Of a stretch of DNA of 64,000 nucleotides, positions 32,873-59,015 are shown piece after piece. Both the position numbers and the translations under genes were made by a program. How positions within the stretch are numbered: position 1 is the first letter of the stretch; every line of letters starts with the position of its first letter. Source of the stretch: Escherichia coli (GTDB taxonomy: Bacteria > Pseudomonadota > Gammaproteobacteria > Enterobacterales > Enterobacteriaceae); NCBI RefSeq assembly GCF_013122565.1, contig NZ_CP053258.1. One strand, written 5' to 3'. A model generated the notes under the pieces. The model saw only the letters and a list, made by a program, of their open reading frames with translations. It searched no databases and had not been told where the DNA came from.

Positions 32873-34114
<1,242 letters not shown>

Positions 34115-34143
34115 TTACTCGTTAATTAGTTTTGAATTAAAAA

Positions 34144-34165
34144 GGGCGCTTCGGCGCCCTTTTTG
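34144..34165 (+). terminator. Intrinsic terminator of the str operon after tufA
   Basis: Stem gggcgc/gcgccc with loop ttcg, followed by ttttt. Confidence 0.85.
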
Positions 34166-34405
34166 CATTTATTGATTGCATATCTTATTTGTAATATCAG
34201 AACGAACAAATCATTCATAATTAAAATATCATATTGAATTGATATTTTAATTATGAATATTTCTGTTTTTAAAATGCTTCATTTATCAGGCTTTTTTCTT
34301 ATTTTTAATGCTGTAATTCAATTCATATTGAAGGGTTCTCGTAAAATGTAAATAATTACTACGTAGGACTTTTGTTTTGTAGTTTTTACGTCACAAGGGA
34401 TTATA

Positions 34406-37099
34406 ATGAAATTAAATATATTTACTAAATCTATGATTGGTATGGGGCTGGTGTGTTCTGCTCTGCCTGCATTTGCTATTGAAGCATGGAATAACCAACA
34501 AGGTGGTAATAAATATCAGGTTATTTTCGATGGCAAAATTTATGAAAATGCCTGGTGGGTTTCTTCTACAAATTGCCCGGGAAAAGCGAAAGCAAATGAT
34601 GCAACTAACCCGTGGCGTTTAAAGCGTACCGCGACAGCTGCTGAAATTAGTCAGTTTGGCAATACACTTTCCTGCGAAAAGAGCGGTAGCTCATCGTCTT
34701 CAACTTCAAATACGCCAGCATCTAATACGCCGGCTAATGGCGGTTCGGCTACACCAGCACAGGGCACTGTTCCGTCTAATTCTTCTGTAGTTGCCTGGAA
34801 TAAACAGCAGGGCGGTCAGACCTGGTATGTCGTCTTTAATGGTGCGGTATATAAAAATGCCTGGTGGGTAGCCTCTTCTAACTGCCCGGGTGATGCGAAA
34901 GGCAATGATGCCAGCAACCCATGGCGTTATGTTCGTGCCGCTACGGCAACGGAAATCTCAGAAACCAGTAATCCACAGTCCTGTACTTCAGCACCACAGC
35001 CTGCACCGGATGTGAAACCGGCACCGGACGTTAAACCGGCTCCTGATGTTCAGCCAGCCCCGGCTGATAAGTCAAACGACAACTATGCTGTCGCAGCCTG
35101 GAAAGGTCAGGAAGGTTCTTCTACATGGTACGTTATCTACAACGGCGGCATTTATAAGAACGCCTGGTGGGTAGGCGCGGCAAATTGCCCAGGCGATGCG
35201 AAAGAAAACGATGCCAGCAACCCATGGCGTTATGTTCGCGCGGCAACGGCAACAGAAATCAGCCAGTATGGTAACCCAGGCTCCTGTTCCGTTAAGCCTG
35301 ATAATAATGGCGGTGCTGTGACTCCGGTTGATCCAACTCCGGAAACTCCGGTTACCCCAACTCCGGATAACAACGAGCCATCAACACCAGCGGATAGCGG
35401 TAACGATTACTCATTGCAAGCGTGGAGCGGCCAGGAAGGTAGCGAAATTTACCATGTTATTTTCAATGGTAATGTTTACAAGAATGCCTGGTGGGTTGGT
35501 TCTAAAGATTGCCCACGGGGTACCAGCGCTGAAAACTCCAATAACCCATGGCGTCTCGTGCGCACAGCTACCGCTGCGGAAATGAGTCAGTATGGTAACC
35601 CGACTACCTGTGAAATTGATAATGGCGGCGTCATTGTTGCGGATGGTTTCCAGGCCAGCAAAGCGTACAGCGCAAACAGCATCGTAGATTATAACGATGC
35701 ACATTATAAAACCTCTGTCGATCAAGACGCATGGGGCTTTGTCCCGGGCGGCGATAACCCGTGGAAGAAATACGAACCGGCGAAAGCATGGTCCGCTTCC
35801 ACCGTGTACTTGAAAGGTGATCGCGTTGTTGTTGATGGGCAGGCTTATGAAGCGCTGTTCTGGACGCAAAGTGACAACCCTGCTCTGGTTGCGAACCAAA
35901 ACGCCACCGGTAGCAATAGCCGCCCGTGGAAGCCGTTAGGTAAGGCTCAGAGCTATAGCAACGAAGAGCTGAATAATGCGCCGCAGTTTAATCCAGAAAC
36001 GCTTTATGCCAGTGATACGCTGATTCGTTTTAACGGTGAGAACTACATTTCTCAGAGTAAAGTGCAGAAAGTTTCCCCTTCTGACAGCAACCCGTGGCGT
36101 GTCTTTGTTGACTGGACCGGAACCAAAGAACGTGTAGGTACGCCGAAGAAAGCGTGGCCGAAACACGTTTATGCACCGTATGTCGACTTTACGCTGAATA
36201 CGATCCCGGATCTGGCTGCGCTGGCTAAGAATCATAACGTCAACCACTTCACGCTGGCGTTTGTGGTGAGTAAAGATGCGAACACCTGTCTGCCGACATG
36301 GGGTACCGCTTACGGTATGCAGAATTACGCTCAGTACAGCAAAATCAAAGCTCTGCGTGAGGCTGGCGGCGATGTGATGCTGTCTATCGGTGGTGCTAAC
36401 AACGCTCCGCTGGCTGCTTCCTGTAAGAACGTAGACGATCTGATGCAGCATTATTATGACATCGTTGATAACCTGAACCTCAAAGTCCTGGACTTCGATA
36501 TCGAAGGCACCTGGGTTGCGGATCAGGCATCTATTGAACGTCGTAACCTTGCTGTGAAGAAAGTGCAGGATAAATGGAAGTCAGAAGGCAAAGATATTGC
36601 TATCTGGTATACCTTGCCAATTCTGCCGACTGGCCTGACGCCGGAAGGGATGAATGTCCTGAGCGATGCCAAAGCGAAAGGTGTTGAGCTGGCGGGTGTG
36701 AACGTGATGACAATGGATTACGGTAACGCGATTTGTCAGTCTGCAAATACCGAAGGTCAGAACATCCACGGTAAGTGTGCTACGTCTGCGATTGCCAGCC
36801 TGCATGCGCAGTTGAAAGGCCTCTACGGCAATAAGAGCGATGCTGAAATTGACGCCATGATGGGTACCACGCCGATGGTTGGCGTGAACGACGTTCAGGG
36901 CGAGGTGTTCTATCTCTCTGATGCTCGTCTGGTCATGCAGGATGCGCAGAAGCGTAATCTCGGTATGGTTGGTATCTGGTCAATCGCGCGCGACCTGCCG
37001 GGCGGCACTAACCTGTCTCCGGAATTCCACGGTCTGACTAAAGAGCAGGCTCCGAAGTACGCATTTAGCGAAATCTTCGCGCCGTTTACTAAGCAATAA
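34406..37099 (+). CDS. chiA: Periplasmic endochitinase/lysozyme-like ChiA (GH18 catalytic domain with four N-terminal chitin-binding repeats)
   Basis: 897-aa ORF-track protein; signal peptide; four repeats of the AW(N/K)xQxGxxxYxVxFNGxxYKNAWWV...NPWR module; GH18 motif LDFDIEG. Confidence 0.95.
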   Translation: MKLNIFTKSMIGMGLVCSALPAFAIEAWNNQQGGNKYQVIFDGKIYENAWWVSSTNCPGKAKANDATNPWRLKRTATAAEISQFGNTLSCEKSGSSSSSTSNTPASNTPANGGSATPAQGTVPSNSSVVAWNKQQGGQTWYVVFNGAVYKNAWWVASSNCPGDAKGNDASNPWRYVRAATATEISETSNPQSCTSAPQPAPDVKPAPDVKPAPDVQPAPADKSNDNYAVAAWKGQEGSSTWYVIYNGGIYKNAWWVGAANCPGDAKENDASNPWRYVRAATATEISQYGNPGSCSVKPDNNGGAVTPVDPTPETPVTPTPDNNEPSTPADSGNDYSLQAWSGQEGSEIYHVIFNGNVYKNAWWVGSKDCPRGTSAENSNNPWRLVRTATAAEMSQYGNPTTCEIDNGGVIVADGFQASKAYSANSIVDYNDAHYKTSVDQDAWGFVPGGDNPWKKYEPAKAWSASTVYLKGDRVVVDGQAYEALFWTQSDNPALVANQNATGSNSRPWKPLGKAQSYSNEELNNAPQFNPETLYASDTLIRFNGENYISQSKVQKVSPSDSNPWRVFVDWTGTKERVGTPKKAWPKHVYAPYVDFTLNTIPDLAALAKNHNVNHFTLAFVVSKDANTCLPTWGTAYGMQNYAQYSKIKALREAGGDVMLSIGGANNAPLAASCKNVDDLMQHYYDIVDNLNLKVLDFDIEGTWVADQASIERRNLAVKKVQDKWKSEGKDIAIWYTLPILPTGLTPEGMNVLSDAKAKGVELAGVNVMTMDYGNAICQSANTEGQNIHGKCATSAIASLHAQLKGLYGNKSDAEIDAMMGTTPMVGVNDVQGEVFYLSDARLVMQDAQKRNLGMVGIWSIARDLPGGTNLSPEFHGLTKEQAPKYAFSEIFAPFTKQ
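35000..35071 (+). repeat. In-frame 18-bp tandem repeat encoding the Pro-rich linker (PAPDVK)x2-PAPDVQ-PAPADK within chiA
   Basis: Four consecutive 18-nt units read from sequence. Confidence 0.8.
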
Positions 37100-37533: not shown

Positions 37534-38010
37534 ATGAAAGGTGATACTAAAGTTATAAATTATCTCAACAAACTGTTGGGAAATGAGCTTGTCGCAATCA
37601 ATCAGTACTTTCTCCATGCCCGGATGTTTAAAAACTGGGGCCTCAAACGTCTCAATGATGTGGAGTATCATGAATCCATTGATGAGATGAAACATGCCGA
37701 TCGTTATATTGAGCGCATTCTTTTTCTGGAAGGTCTTCCAAACTTACAGGACCTGGGCAAACTGAACATTGGTGAAGATGTTGAGGAAATGCTGCGTTCT
37801 GATCTGGCACTTGAGCTGGATGGCGCGAAGAATTTGCGTGAGGCAATTGGTTATGCCGATAGCGTTCATGATTACGTCAGCCGCGATATGATGATAGAAA
37901 TTTTGCGCGATGAAGAAGGCCATATCGACTGGCTGGAAACGGAACTTGATCTGATTCAGAAGATGGGCCTGCAAAATTATCTGCAAGCACAGATCCGCGA
38001 AGAAGGTTGA
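37534..38010 (+). CDS. bfr: Bacterioferritin
   Basis: 158-aa ORF-track protein; SD aaggag. Confidence 0.97.
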
Positions 38011-48860: not shown

Positions 48861-50330
48861 ATGTCTACGAGAAGAGAAGTTATTCTTGCCTGGTTGCGTG
48901 AGAAACGTCAGACCTGGCGTCTGTGCTATTTGTTGGGTGAGGCTGGAAGTGGAAAAACCTGGCTGGCGCAGCAATTACAAAAAGATAAACATCGCCGTGT
49001 GATTACTTTAAGCCTCGTTGTTTCCTGGCAAGGTAAGGCCGCATGGATCGTTACCGACGATAACGCGGCTGAACAGGGCTGCCGTGACAGCGCCTGGACG
49101 CGAGATGAGATGGCGGGGCAATTACTGCATGCGCTTCATCGAACTGATAGTCGCTGCCCTCTTATTATTATTGAAAATGCTCACCTGAATCACCGCCGGA
49201 TACTTGATGATCTCCAACGCGCGATATCTCTTATTCCTGACGGTCAATTTTTGCTGATCGGCAGACCCGATCGAAAAGTCGAACGTGATTTTAAAAAACA
49301 GGGCATTGAACTTGTCTCGACAGGACGTCTAACGGAGCACGAACTTAAGGCTAGTATCCTTGAAGGTCAGAATATTGACCAACCCGATCTCCTTTTAACC
49401 GCCAGTGTTCTGAAACGAATAGCTTTATTATGTCGGGGCGATCGCAGAAAGCTGGCGCTTGCCGGCGAAACAATTAGCTTATTACAGCAAGCCGAGCAGA
49501 CCAGCGTTTTCACAGCAAAACAATGGCGAATGATTTACCGCATATTGGGTGATAACCGCCCCCGGAAAATGCAGCTTGCCGTGGTAATGAGTGGAACCAT
49601 TATCGCTATTACCTGTGGTTGGCTACTGCTGTCCTCTTTCACAGCTCCGTTCCCCGTTCCTGCGTGGCTGGTACCCGTAACGCCAGTAGTTAAACAAGAT
49701 ATGACTAAGGATATTGCTCATGTGGTGATGCGCGATAGTGAGGCGCTAAGCGTGTTATACGGCGTATGGGGGTACGAGGTCCCAGCTGATTCGGCCTGGT
49801 GCGATCAGGCAGTAAGAGCGGGGCTGGCATGTAAAAGTGGGAATGCTTCTTTACAAACATTGGTAGATCAGAATTTGCCCTGGATCGCATCGCTTAAAGT
49901 CGGGGACAAAAAATTGCCTGTTGTGGTCGTTCGCGTCGGTGAGGCTACCGTTGATGTCCTCGTAGGTCAGCAAACGTGGACGCTGACACATAAATGGTTT
50001 GAGTCGGTATGGACGGGTGATTATCTTCTGTTGTGGAAAATGTCGCCGGAAGGGGAGAGTACCATTACGCGTGATAGCAGCGAGGAAGAGATTCTCTGGC
50101 TGGAAACGATGTTAAACCGTGCATTGCATATTTCGACAGAACCTTCGGCGGAGTGGCGTCCCTTGTTGGTAGAAAAAATAAAGCAATTTCAAAAAAGCCA
50201 CCACTTGAAAACTGACGGTGTTGTTGGCTTTTCAACCTTAGTACATCTCTGGCAGGTGGCAGGGGAGAGTGCCTACTTATATCGGGATGAAGCAAATATT
50301 TCCCCGGAAACAACAGTGAAGGGGAAATGA
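48861..50330 (+). CDS. gspA: Type II secretion accessory protein A (ExeA-like AAA ATPase with periplasmic domain)
   Basis: 489-aa ORF-track protein; Walker A GEAGSGKT; divergent from gspC. Confidence 0.92.
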   Translation: MSTRREVILAWLREKRQTWRLCYLLGEAGSGKTWLAQQLQKDKHRRVITLSLVVSWQGKAAWIVTDDNAAEQGCRDSAWTRDEMAGQLLHALHRTDSRCPLIIIENAHLNHRRILDDLQRAISLIPDGQFLLIGRPDRKVERDFKKQGIELVSTGRLTEHELKASILEGQNIDQPDLLLTASVLKRIALLCRGDRRKLALAGETISLLQQAEQTSVFTAKQWRMIYRILGDNRPRKMQLAVVMSGTIIAITCGWLLLSSFTAPFPVPAWLVPVTPVVKQDMTKDIAHVVMRDSEALSVLYGVWGYEVPADSAWCDQAVRAGLACKSGNASLQTLVDQNLPWIASLKVGDKKLPVVVVRVGEATVDVLVGQQTWTLTHKWFESVWTGDYLLLWKMSPEGESTITRDSSEEEILWLETMLNRALHISTEPSAEWRPLLVEKIKQFQKSHHLKTDGVVGFSTLVHLWQVAGESAYLYRDEANISPETTVKGK

Positions 50331-50331
50331 C

Positions 50332-50751
50332 ATGTTTGAATTCTATATCGCCGCGCGTGAGCAGAAAGAAACAGGTCACCCTGGTATCTTCTCCCGACAA
50401 AAACACAGCACCATAATATATGTCATTTGTTTATTACTGATTTGCCTGTGGTTTGCAGGAATGGTGCTGGTTGGTGGGTATGCCAGGCAGCTATGGGTGC
50501 TTTGGATAGTAAAAGCAGAAGTCACTGTAGAGGCTGAAACGCCCGCTTTTAAACAATCAACACAACACTATTTCTTCAAAAAACAGCCACTCCCCGTCGT
50601 CGAATCCGTCGAGGAGGAAGATGATCCAGGCGTCGCGGTTGAGAATGCCCCCTCTTCTTCTGAAGACGAAGAAAATACTGTGGAAGAAAGCGACGAGAAA
50701 GCCGGTTTAAGAGAGCGTGTTAAAAATGCGCTGAACGAACTTGAGAGATAA
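50332..50751 (+). CDS. gspB: Type II secretion accessory protein B (ExeB-like)
   Basis: 139-aa ORF-track protein with single TM segment and acidic C-terminus. Confidence 0.88.
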   Translation: MFEFYIAAREQKETGHPGIFSRQKHSTIIYVICLLLICLWFAGMVLVGGYARQLWVLWIVKAEVTVEAETPAFKQSTQHYFFKKQPLPVVESVEEEDDPGVAVENAPSSSEDEENTVEESDEKAGLRERVKNALNELER

Positions 50752-50783
50752 CCCGAAGGCTGTTTACTTTACTAGCAATACGC

Positions 50784-50811
50784 TTGCGTTCGGTGGTTAA
50801 GTATGTATAAT
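50784..50811 (+). promoter_or_regulatory. S10 operon promoter (-35 TTGCGT, 16-bp spacer, -10 TATAAT)
   Basis: Hexamers at 50784..50789 and 50806..50811; predicted transcript start about 170 nt upstream of rpsJ. Confidence 0.7.
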
Positions 50812-50817
50812 GCGCGG

Positions 50818-51300
<483 letters not shown>

Positions 51301-51320
51301 TCAGGTCATTGAGCGATTGA

Positions 51321-53716
<2,396 letters not shown>

Positions 53717-53729
53717 TTTTAGAGGATAA

Positions 53730-54011
<282 letters not shown>

Positions 54012-54016
54012 GGTAG

Positions 54017-55945
<1,929 letters not shown>

Positions 55946-55970
55946 TACAGTACACTCTCTCGATACGAAT

Positions 55971-56002
55971 AAACGGCTCAGAAATGAGCCGTTTATTTTT
56001 TC
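55971..56002 (+). terminator. Intrinsic terminator at the end of the S10 operon
   Basis: Stem aaacggctca/tgagccgttt, loop gaaa, followed by attttttct. Confidence 0.85.
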
Positions 56003-56022
56003 TACCCATATCCTTGAAGCGG

Positions 56023-56031
56023 TGTTATAAT
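56023..56031 (+). promoter_or_regulatory. spc operon promoter, extended -10 (TGtTATAAT)
   Basis: TGnTATAAT about 78 bp upstream of rplN; no good -35 at 16-18 bp spacing. Confidence 0.5.
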
Positions 56032-56097
56032 GCCGCGCCCTCGATATGGGGATTTTTAACGACCTGATTTTCGGGTCTCAGTAGTAGTTGACATTAG

Positions 56098-57360
<1,263 letters not shown>

Positions 57361-57371
57361 GGTAGGGTTAC

Positions 57372-57680
<309 letters not shown>

Positions 57681-57707
57681 TTGTCACCAATTGAATCACG
57701 GGAGTAA

Positions 57708-59015
<1,308 letters not shown>

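Follow-up and report, generated by a model that had tools for sequence, protein, structure and literature searches.

The window, as we call the whole stretch of 64,000 nucleotides that was analysed, contains an open reading frame at 34406..37099 that encodes 897 amino acids plus a stop codon; it lies on the plus strand, as do all the features of this gene described below. It is flanked by reading frames for tufA on one side and bfd, bfr and gspO on the other, and the resulting order tuf-chiA-bfd-bfr-gspO is that of annotated E. coli genomes. The nucleotide identity to genes annotated as chiA in E. coli is 97-98%, and a Pfam scan found both PF00704 and PF02839 above their gathering scores in the product. 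Synteny, nucleotide identity and domain content thus agree in identifying the gene as the E. coli chiA (yheB) orthologue, encoding a bifunctional chitinase/lysozyme. In a nucleotide search, the N-terminal half of the gene was recovered at 95-99% identity in 3,126 genomes; over 4.1 kb of the locus the best identity was 98.1%, none of the complete E. coli genomes giving a higher value. Best values of 97.8-98.1% for chiA raised the question whether the window comes from outside E. coli, an idea that was rejected since the ribosomal-protein operon at 50000..58000 is 99.9% identical to E. coli; as this operon is strongly conserved and the collection contains no Shigella, a source in Shigella or another close Escherichia is still conceivable. 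A protein identical to that of the window is present in an NCBI draft assembly. Earlier literature describes both the gene and the seven "chitin-binding domains" of its product. ChiA is secreted via T2SS-alpha/GspO (PMC3707838), and is a substrate of the adjoining Gsp type II secretion system.

The protein begins with a predicted signal peptide, MKLNIFTKSMIGMGLVCSALPAFA (residues 1-24, 34406..34477), with a hydrophobic core and an A-x-A ahead of IEAW. Residue 25 is where the first module starts in relatives, which supports this prediction. Four CBM5/12-like N-terminal modules are then followed by three canonical CBM5/12 modules (residues about 417-572, 35654..36121) and a GH18 catalytic domain (residues about 584-895, 36155..37090). 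PF02839 matches the canonical region in three stretches (E 6.7e-15), the best being residues 461-494, and PDB entries 2d49 and 6z40 align to the same region. For the catalytic domain, PF00704 covers residues 609-803, and the GH18 chitinases 9buf, 2dsk and 3a4w align to residues 584-895. ChiA (YheB) of E. coli K-12 has the same locus, the same length of 897 residues and the same domain order, as well as the same state of the linker repeats described below (four 18-bp units, two 15-bp units, no extra TPE unit), but differs from the protein of the window by 17 amino acid substitutions, with a nucleotide divergence of about 2%. The intergenic region between tufA and chiA is much more diverged between the two than the gene itself.

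The four N-terminal modules occupy residues 25-93 (34478..34684), 128-196 (34787..34993), 229-297 (35090..35296) and 337-405 (35414..35620) in the module alignment. At the DNA level they form a repeat family whose members start at 34482, 34791, 35094 and 35418, at spacings of 309, 303 and 324 nucleotides, which corresponds to a period of 101-108 residues for a module of about 69. The first-pass annotation had recognised four copies of an N-terminal module, and both these repeat starts and the pairwise amino acid identities of 48-70% bear this out. Judged from the protein alignment, in which 26 of the 69 columns are invariant, the similarity among the four is far beyond chance. Some details of the earlier description need revision: the module is not roughly 50 residues long but about 66-69 (AW...C), and the (I/M)S(Q/E) motif, which was taken for its end, lies 8-10 residues ahead of the closing cysteine. 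Likewise, the motifs YKNAWWV and CPG had been assigned to every copy, which holds except that module 1 reads YENAWWV and module 4 reads CPR.

Neither Pfam nor NCBIfam, searched with the entire protein and with the single modules, returned a family for modules 1-4, and PF02839 did not match any of the four even at E <= 10, while it does match the three modules downstream. Since modules 1-4 have no family in either collection, their nature was judged by profile and fold comparison. A profile of 31 module sequences aligned with the canonical CBM5/12 of ChiA itself in hhalign with a probability of 87% (E 3.6e-6). The AlphaFold model of the module is confident (pLDDT 93.5) and consists of three strands and one helix; its likeness to chitin-binding CBM5/12 domains assigns the N-terminal modules to that fold. 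A pair of tryptophans is present in all four. The published account of ChiA (PMC11486038) counts these modules as chitin-binding domains 1-4 of seven, and ChiA is reported to bind CHI3L1 (PMC11486038). The comparisons support placing modules 1-4 with the CBM5/12 chitin-binding domains, and the binding itself is a prediction from profile and model; to this extent, the earlier naming of the modules as chitin-binding is supported by the profile, the model and the literature alike. They nevertheless differ from CBM5/12 domains as represented by PF02839, the ChBD of S. griseus ChiC (2d49) and the ChBD of B. circulans ChiA1 (1ed7). The ChiA modules are about 20 residues longer, carry an additional C-terminal helix (ATAxEIxxxGNPxxC), keep a Cys33-Cys66 pair that presumably forms a disulfide, and fall below Pfam detection.

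The only solved sequence relative of the modules lies elsewhere, in residues 24-92 of Chi2 from Yersinia entomophaga (6ogd_C), which was matched at E 5.4e-18 with a profile of four sequences and at E 1.3e-24 with the profile of 31. The N-terminal domain of Chi2 anchors the chitinase to the YenA1 toxin subunit (PMC12705794), and modules 1-4 could by analogy be protein-docking or secretion-targeting domains and not carbohydrate binders, a reading with which the absence of any Pfam CBM match would also agree. The resemblance is extensive: in the YenTc complex (PDB 6ogd, 9c4k, 9cbc) the Chi2 domain is homologous over the whole 69-residue module, it sits, like module 1 of ChiA, at the N-terminus of a GH18 chitinase, and its compact mixed alpha/beta fold (PMC12705794) is consistent with the module model. 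However, Chi2 contacts its partner mainly via a long beta-strand that extends from the N-terminus of the domain (PMC12705794), and this donor strand has no counterpart in ChiA, because the residues ahead of module 1 form the predicted signal peptide; modules 2-4 are preceded by Pro/Thr/Ser linkers. Chi2, which has one copy of the domain against four in ChiA, has also lost both cysteines and the first tryptophan of the pair (YTNTYWV), while the ChiA modules retain them. Moreover, the module is found on GH18 chitinases of many bacteria, judged by chitinase context alone, and its fold and profile resemble those of chitin-binding CBM5/12 domains. A docking or targeting role for modules 1-4 is thus unlikely.

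The four modules would stem from tandem duplication. Modules 2 and 3 are the closest pair (70% amino acid identity). The one syntenic orthologue examined has three modules, the outer two 75% identical to E. coli modules 1 and 4, and the middle one 59-64% identical to modules 2 and 3. Modules 2 and 3 would accordingly be the youngest pair, unduplicated in this relative. A protein search among 1.84 billion representatives retrieved 46 clusters of the module family, in which the module is always N-terminal on a GH18 chitinase and mostly in single copy.

Pro/Thr/Ser-rich linkers separate the four modules, and each linker is partly built of an in-frame repeat of 15, 18 or 9 bp. Linker 2 contains four 18-bp units at 35000..35071, encoding PAPDVK, PAPDVK, PAPDVQ and PAPADK, exactly the coordinates and peptides of the first-pass annotation. 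The units are, however, imperfect and not perfect as stated there: in pairwise comparison they share 12-15 of 18 bases (67-83%), and the longest exact repeats, GCACCGGA and AAACCGGC, measure 8 bp. The array is still beyond chance, since Tandem Repeats Finder gave it a score of 66 (2.6 copies, 82% match) against a default threshold of 50. In linker 1, allele alignment delimits two 15-bp units at 34709..34738 (NTPAS, NTPAN). Linker 3 carries, at 35321..35368, 9-bp ACTCCGGNN units reading TPV..TPE TPV..TPD, as seen with Tandem Repeats Finder and in the allele alignment. The 15-bp repeat of linker 1 and the 9-bp TP(E/V/D) repeat of linker 3 had not been remarked on in the first reading of the sequence.

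Repeat numbers were compared across 3,121 complete E. coli genomes that carry the region. The 18-bp unit count was four in about 3,060 of them (98%), five in 17 and three in 29, the linker 2 variants amounting to 1.5%; a further 16 genomes, matched at 80-90% identity, would fit a four-unit allele with at least 4 SNPs, such as that of the window. The five-unit alleles are exact duplications of CACCGGATGTGAAACCGG, and 15 of the 17 are identical over 210 bp. The three-unit alleles have an 18-bp deletion flanked by AAACCGGC, and fall into two tight score groups, at 96.1% and 96.6%. Strain 789 is one with five units, whereas UPEC132 has three, together with the 15-bp and 9-bp gains of the other linkers. 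A synthetic six-unit query found no six-unit allele in complete E. coli genomes: its best matches, in four-unit genomes, were broken into two alignments, and the identity of the 17 five-unit genomes dropped to 90-95%. The other linkers vary as well, with three 15-bp units of linker 1 in 32 complete genomes and one extra TPE unit of linker 3, after 35344, in 1,164 of the 3,121 (B2-type alleles such as PA45B).

Whole modules can also be missing. In ETEC1746 and in the S. dysenteriae CP027027 chromosome, modules 2 and 3 have been joined into one by a deletion of exactly 303 bp. Its junctions fall within a 29-bp segment of module 2, GATGCCAGCAACCCATGGCGTTATGTTCG (34907..34935), which is identical to its partner copy in module 3 (35210..35238). 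The two deleted sequences differ from each other at 13 of 992 aligned positions. The same fusion occurs in protein databases on B2-type and K-12-type haplotypes (P0058, P0047), and the 3-module allele recurs in about 150 contig-collection blocks, among which is a 5.04-Mb chromosome. Two further deleted forms, P0061 and P0062, each known from one metagenome contig, may have resulted from assembly collapse; P0061 also has a C-terminal frameshift. The protein search with residues 1-420 returned shortened forms only, the common 897-residue cluster being missing from the matches, and is thus uninformative on longer alleles. A synthetic reciprocal junction, with the front of module 3 and the back of module 2, found no full-length single-piece match of the kind expected from a five-module duplication. 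The count of sequences at least 80% covered by this query had no power to discriminate, given that the fronts of the modules align with one another at 88%; five-module alleles are likely to be absent, which is less firmly shown. The earlier expectation of possible strain differences in module and linker number was thus confirmed in complete genomes, with three, four or five units and the loss of a 303-bp module, and the alternative, an identical number in all strains, was not observed.

The junctions suggest how these alleles may have arisen. From time to time a linker repeat would acquire or drop a single unit, replication slippage at the 8-bp microhomologies being the most likely cause, and the 20-29 bp stretches of identity between modules 2 and 3 would occasionally allow unequal homologous exchange with a loss of exactly 303 bp, that is one module plus linker 2. 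As all the length changes are in frame, they would alter the length of a linker or the number of modules and not destroy the enzyme. Such events would be rare, and their products seem to have been passed on by descent: the variants are rare, and the near-uniform local haplotype of each suggests that events were few, perhaps no more than one for each allele.

Unit numbers of three, four or five, together with the gain or loss of units in all three linkers, could alternatively point to a hypermutable contingency locus, in which slipped-strand mispairing of the 18-bp array modulates ChiA function at high frequency. Tandem units and copy numbers that differ among strains are indeed what chiA has in common with simple-sequence contingency loci. 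The likeness ends there, as the chiA units are 67-83% identical, with no exact repeat beyond 8 bp, and on/off switching by frameshift is impossible because the units are multiples of 3 bp. With 98% of the genomes in a single state, five-unit and three-unit alleles that are locally near-uniform and no six-unit allele found, the pattern is not that of frequent, reversible switching of expression, and we consider a contingency function very improbable. At the other extreme, the variants might be artefacts of sequencing or assembly, with repeat and module numbers that are in truth constant. Assemblies are well known to go wrong at tandem repeats, and the deleted forms P0061 and P0062 each come from a single metagenome contig. 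But the variants are found in many independently made complete genomes from differing hosts and countries, they keep the frame and are exact unit multiples, typical sequencing reads are long relative to the exact repeats of 8-29 bp, and the 3-module allele recurs in the roughly 150 blocks mentioned above. A general artefact is therefore an extremely remote prospect. Our preferred account, to which we would give a probability of about 85%, is that of a known gene, chiA, with tandem-duplicated modules, in which a multi-domain secreted glycoside hydrolase shows rare, in-frame, repeat-mediated length polymorphism, and not a fast switch.

Repeated linkers rich in Pro, Thr and Ser are common in modular cellulases and chitinases. 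The ChiA linkers conform to those of modular glycoside hydrolases in being low-complexity P/T/S/A-rich spacers with short in-frame repeats and a length that varies between alleles; nothing essential differs, and chiA offers a population-scale record of the variation within one species. Length variation of this kind is thus to be expected in a modular secreted glycoside hydrolase, and it raises no new question. A more ambitious proposal would be that modules 1-4 are a distinct, uncurated offshoot of CBM5/12, defined by the C-terminal helix and the disulfide, comprising about 46 clusters and common to the Chi2 docking domain of YenTc, and that module number (three versus four) and the 15-, 18- and 9-bp linker alleles represent selected, lineage-specific tuning of the reach and avidity of ChiA for host glycoproteins such as CHI3L1 and mucins. 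We regard this as unlikely. If true, selected module number and linker length would add to the AIEC/ExPEC phenotypes for which five point substitutions alone are now held responsible.

In E. coli associated with Crohn's disease, ChiA acts as a factor of adhesion and colonisation (PMC11486038), and polymorphisms of its "chitin-binding domain" serve as pathotype markers (PMC11486038). Module 4 holds the published AIEC-associated substitutions at positions 362, 370, 378 and 388 in LF82 numbering (PMC11486038). Of the five AIEC-associated positions, the window has three as in K-12 (K, K and A) and two as in LF82-type alleles (V and E), and is in this respect a mosaic. The published positions 362-548 are shifted by +3 relative to K-12 and to the window, because they were numbered on a 900-residue allele. 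Besides such substitutions, chiA alleles also differ by indels, namely +15 bp in linker 1, +/-18 bp in linker 2, +9 bp in linker 3 and the loss of a 303-bp module, and these in-frame indels have to be taken into account in numbering residues, in designing PCR assays and markers, and in interpreting binding experiments.

In the window, chiA is one long open reading frame at 34406-37099 (+, 897 residues). Ahead of it lies tufA (32885-34114); bfr (37534-38010) and, on the other strand, a prepilin-peptidase gene come after it. When 5,426 complete E. coli genomes were searched with megablast, the matches fell on genes annotated "chiA: bifunctional chitinase/lysozyme", with the tuf-chiA-bfd-bfr-gspO context kept. 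Pfam detected CBM_5_12 and Glyco_hydro_18 in the product, GH18 chitinase structures aligned to residues 584-895, and 17 residues differ from K-12 ChiA. The gene is well known: ChiA serves as substrate for type II secretion system alpha in K-12 and is processed with GspO (PMC3707838), and its seven binding domains are already published, with the four N-terminal modules studied here numbered chitin-binding domains 1-4 (PMC11486038).

The fourfold repeat noticed in the first-pass annotation was recovered at both the DNA and the protein level. A DNA repeat family, D2, has copies beginning at 34482, 34791, 35094 and 35418 (spacing 309, 303 and 324 nt), and the corresponding 69-residue segments (aa 25-93, 128-196, 229-297 and 337-405; 34478-34684, 34787-34993, 35090-35296 and 35414-35620) share 48-70% pairwise identity and 26 invariant columns. 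The modules are thus about 66-69 residues long rather than about 50, and the motifs ascribed to each of them need correction: module 1 reads YENAWWV instead of YKNAWWV, module 4 has CPR in place of CPG, and (I/M)S(Q/E) is internal, before the closing cysteine, rather than the module end. In linker 2, four 18-bp units do lie in frame at 35000-35071 and encode PAPDVK, PAPDVK, PAPDVQ and PAPADK, as had been described, but they are not perfect: any two agree at 12-15 of 18 bases, no exact repeat exceeds 8 bp (GCACCGGA and AAACCGGC reach that length), and the array was scored by Tandem Repeats Finder as 2.6 copies at 82% match. Two further arrays had been overlooked, a 15-bp unit encoding NTPA(S/N) present twice in linker 1 (34709-34738) and 9-bp ACTCCGGNN units (TPx) in linker 3 (35321-35368).

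The N-terminal half of chiA (34406-35700) was found in 3,160 of the 5,426 complete genomes, with one or two of the matches on plasmid-type records. Sampling the ranked matches at even intervals gave matched spans of 1,295 bp (the length in the window and in K-12), 1,304, 1,313 or 992 bp. Indels were placed by fetching and aligning representative alleles, and each was then counted with allele-specific queries. In linker 2, strain 789 has a fifth unit, an exact duplication of CACCGGATGTGAAACCGG, and UPEC132 has three units, with the 8-bp repeat AAACCGGC at the flanks of the deletion; five units were counted in 17 genomes, three in 29 and four in about 3,058, the remaining 16 being consistent with four units plus additional SNPs. 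UPEC132 also carries a third 15-bp unit (SNAPA) in linker 1, a state shared by 32 of 3,116 genomes, and, together with PA45B (both are B2-type alleles), one additional 9-bp TPE unit in linker 3 that was present in 1,164 of 3,121. ETEC1746 lacks exactly 303 bp, leaving an in-frame module 2/3 fusion in a protein of 796 residues, and was the only complete E. coli genome with this junction. Among the same genomes, a synthetic six-unit query for linker 2 found no such allele, and a reciprocal junction made up to detect a five-module allele had no convincing match. A word-indexed protein search with ChiA residues 1-420, which is blind to longer alleles, returned only truncated or deleted forms, without the common 897-residue cluster. 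The predicted strain variation in linker and module number is therefore borne out by the three-, four- and five-unit alleles and the 303-bp module loss; the contrary outcome, one repeat number in every strain, was looked for and is not what these genomes have. We found no paper describing such length alleles of chiA.

All linker indels are exact multiples of a unit, lie within the repeats, keep the frame and are bordered by 8-bp direct repeats; slippage during replication or recombination at short homologies probably produced these gains and losses. Modules 2 and 3 share no identical stretch longer than the one (29 bp in the window, 20 bp in K-12) within which the module deletion has its junction, and unequal homologous exchange probably removed the module. 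The tempo of these changes is low. Among the 17 five-unit alleles, 15 have one and the same sequence over 210 bp, and the 29 three-unit alleles form two tight identity groups. The three-unit linker 2 occurs together with the 15-bp gain in linker 1 in at least three genomes (D8, UPEC132 and GW-AmxH19), and the overall counts of these two alleles are similar (29 and 32). A low tempo fits the imperfect units, and this imperfection, the near-uniform variant alleles and the four-unit state of linker 2 in 98% of genomes argue against reading chiA as a contingency locus.

Outside the complete E. coli set, the 303-bp deletion was also found on a 5.04-Mb Shigella dysenteriae chromosome, and the index of the contig collection lists it for about 150 blocks. 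This Shigella allele additionally carries a frameshift in the GH18 domain and differs from that of ETEC1746 at 13 of 992 aligned positions, and the fusion also occurs on B2-type (P0058) and K-12-type (P0047) haplotypes. The divergence of the alleles and the range of haplotypes suggest that the deletion recurred, and spread by recombination after one event is a less favoured account of the same distribution. Two single-contig metagenome forms, one with modules 2 and 3 wholly deleted (P0061) and one with a module 2/4 fusion (P0062), could be assembly artefacts. As for the origin of the four modules, another enterobacterium has a syntenic chiA orthologue with three (P0001, 786 residues; locus L009, 3001-5361, and locus L010), at about 72% nucleotide identity compared with 93% for tuf. 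The outer two correspond to E. coli modules 1 and 4 (75% amino acid identity), the middle one is about equidistant from modules 2 and 3, and the latter are each other's closest relatives (70%). Most other family members have one module. The fourth module was therefore most likely gained when the middle one was duplicated, whether on the branch leading to E. coli or earlier still, the relative having lost it since; loss of the 303 bp undoes this duplication. The linkers of the orthologue differ from those of E. coli in being P/V/D/T-rich.

The N-terminal half of chiA is missing from 2,266 of the 5,426 genomes; in strain 3PT (locus L007) an IS1 follows immediately after bp 61 of chiA, with the deletion extending into the gsp secretion operon. 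The gene has also been repeatedly inactivated: GW-AmxH19 has a 91-bp frameshifting deletion, and a widespread allele of Shigella dysenteriae/boydii combines the GH18 frameshift with the module 2/3 fusion. In several other complete genomes chiA is annotated only as "carbohydrate-binding protein" or "lysozyme". A UniProt entry, "Endochitinase 11, Metarhizium anisopliae" (P0073, 522 residues), is 87% identical to the window ChiA over 515 residues (aa 351-865) with frameshift-like patches, and its first residues, MLFSMVMFT, match an out-of-frame reading frame of the window (35328-35585, +); the entry is apparently a piece of E. coli chiA that was deposited under a fungal name. The window's own allele is E. 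coli-like: at 50000-58000 the window has a ribosomal-protein operon with 99.9% identity to E. coli, while the chiA-bfr segment reaches at most 98.1% identity to any complete E. coli genome. The tufA-chiA spacer (34115-34405) has about 30 mismatches in 400 bp to K-12, 789 and PA45B, a divergence several-fold above that of chiA, with tufA nearly identical. The exact protein is present in one NCBI draft assembly, GCA_052983875.1. At the five published AIEC-associated positions the allele is a mosaic (K, K, A, V and E at 362, 370, 378, 388 and 548 in LF82 numbering, which runs +3 relative to the 897-residue allele here because of the TPE unit).

The three downstream modules of ChiA (aa ~417-572) are ordinary CBM_5_12 by Pfam, while modules 1-4 matched no Pfam or NCBIfam family even at E = 10. 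Searching 1.84 billion cluster representatives exhaustively with an HMM returned just 46 proteins with this module; full-length members are nearly all GH18 chitinases in which it adjoins the signal peptide, mostly in single copy. One protein of 243 residues (P0002) has three tandem copies, no catalytic domain and no W-W pair (NASPV, NKNLV, NISRV), and could be either fragmentary or a free-standing module protein. Profile-profile comparison matched the module to ChiA's own CBM5/12 modules (probability 87%, E 3.6e-6, positions 2-49), and a confident AlphaFold2 model (pLDDT 93.5) has three strands and a C-terminal helix. On this evidence modules 1-4 are diverged CBM5/12-like domains that carry an additional helix and a conserved cysteine pair, and their W-W pair occupies the position of the aromatic residues in CBM5/12 domains; on profile similarity and predicted fold, "chitin-binding modules" seems a fair label. 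The sole solved relative is residues 24-92 of "Chitinase 2" in the Yersinia entomophaga toxin complex (6ogd_C; E 5e-18 with the four-module profile, 1.3e-24 with a 31-sequence profile). This Chi2 N-terminal domain helps the enzyme dock to YenA1, chiefly via an N-terminal donor strand (PMC12705794). It is homologous to the ChiA modules, but they have no donor strand, and the cysteines and one tryptophan are gone from Chi2. We regard docking as something that Chi2 probably acquired secondarily, not as what the ChiA modules do.

Our findings indicate that the length alleles of chiA are an expected, low-frequency property of its repeat-containing linkers. What is mildly new is that modules 1-4 belong to a small family, unmodelled by Pfam or NCBIfam, that has a predicted CBM5/12-like fold and includes the N-terminal domain of YenTc Chi2.
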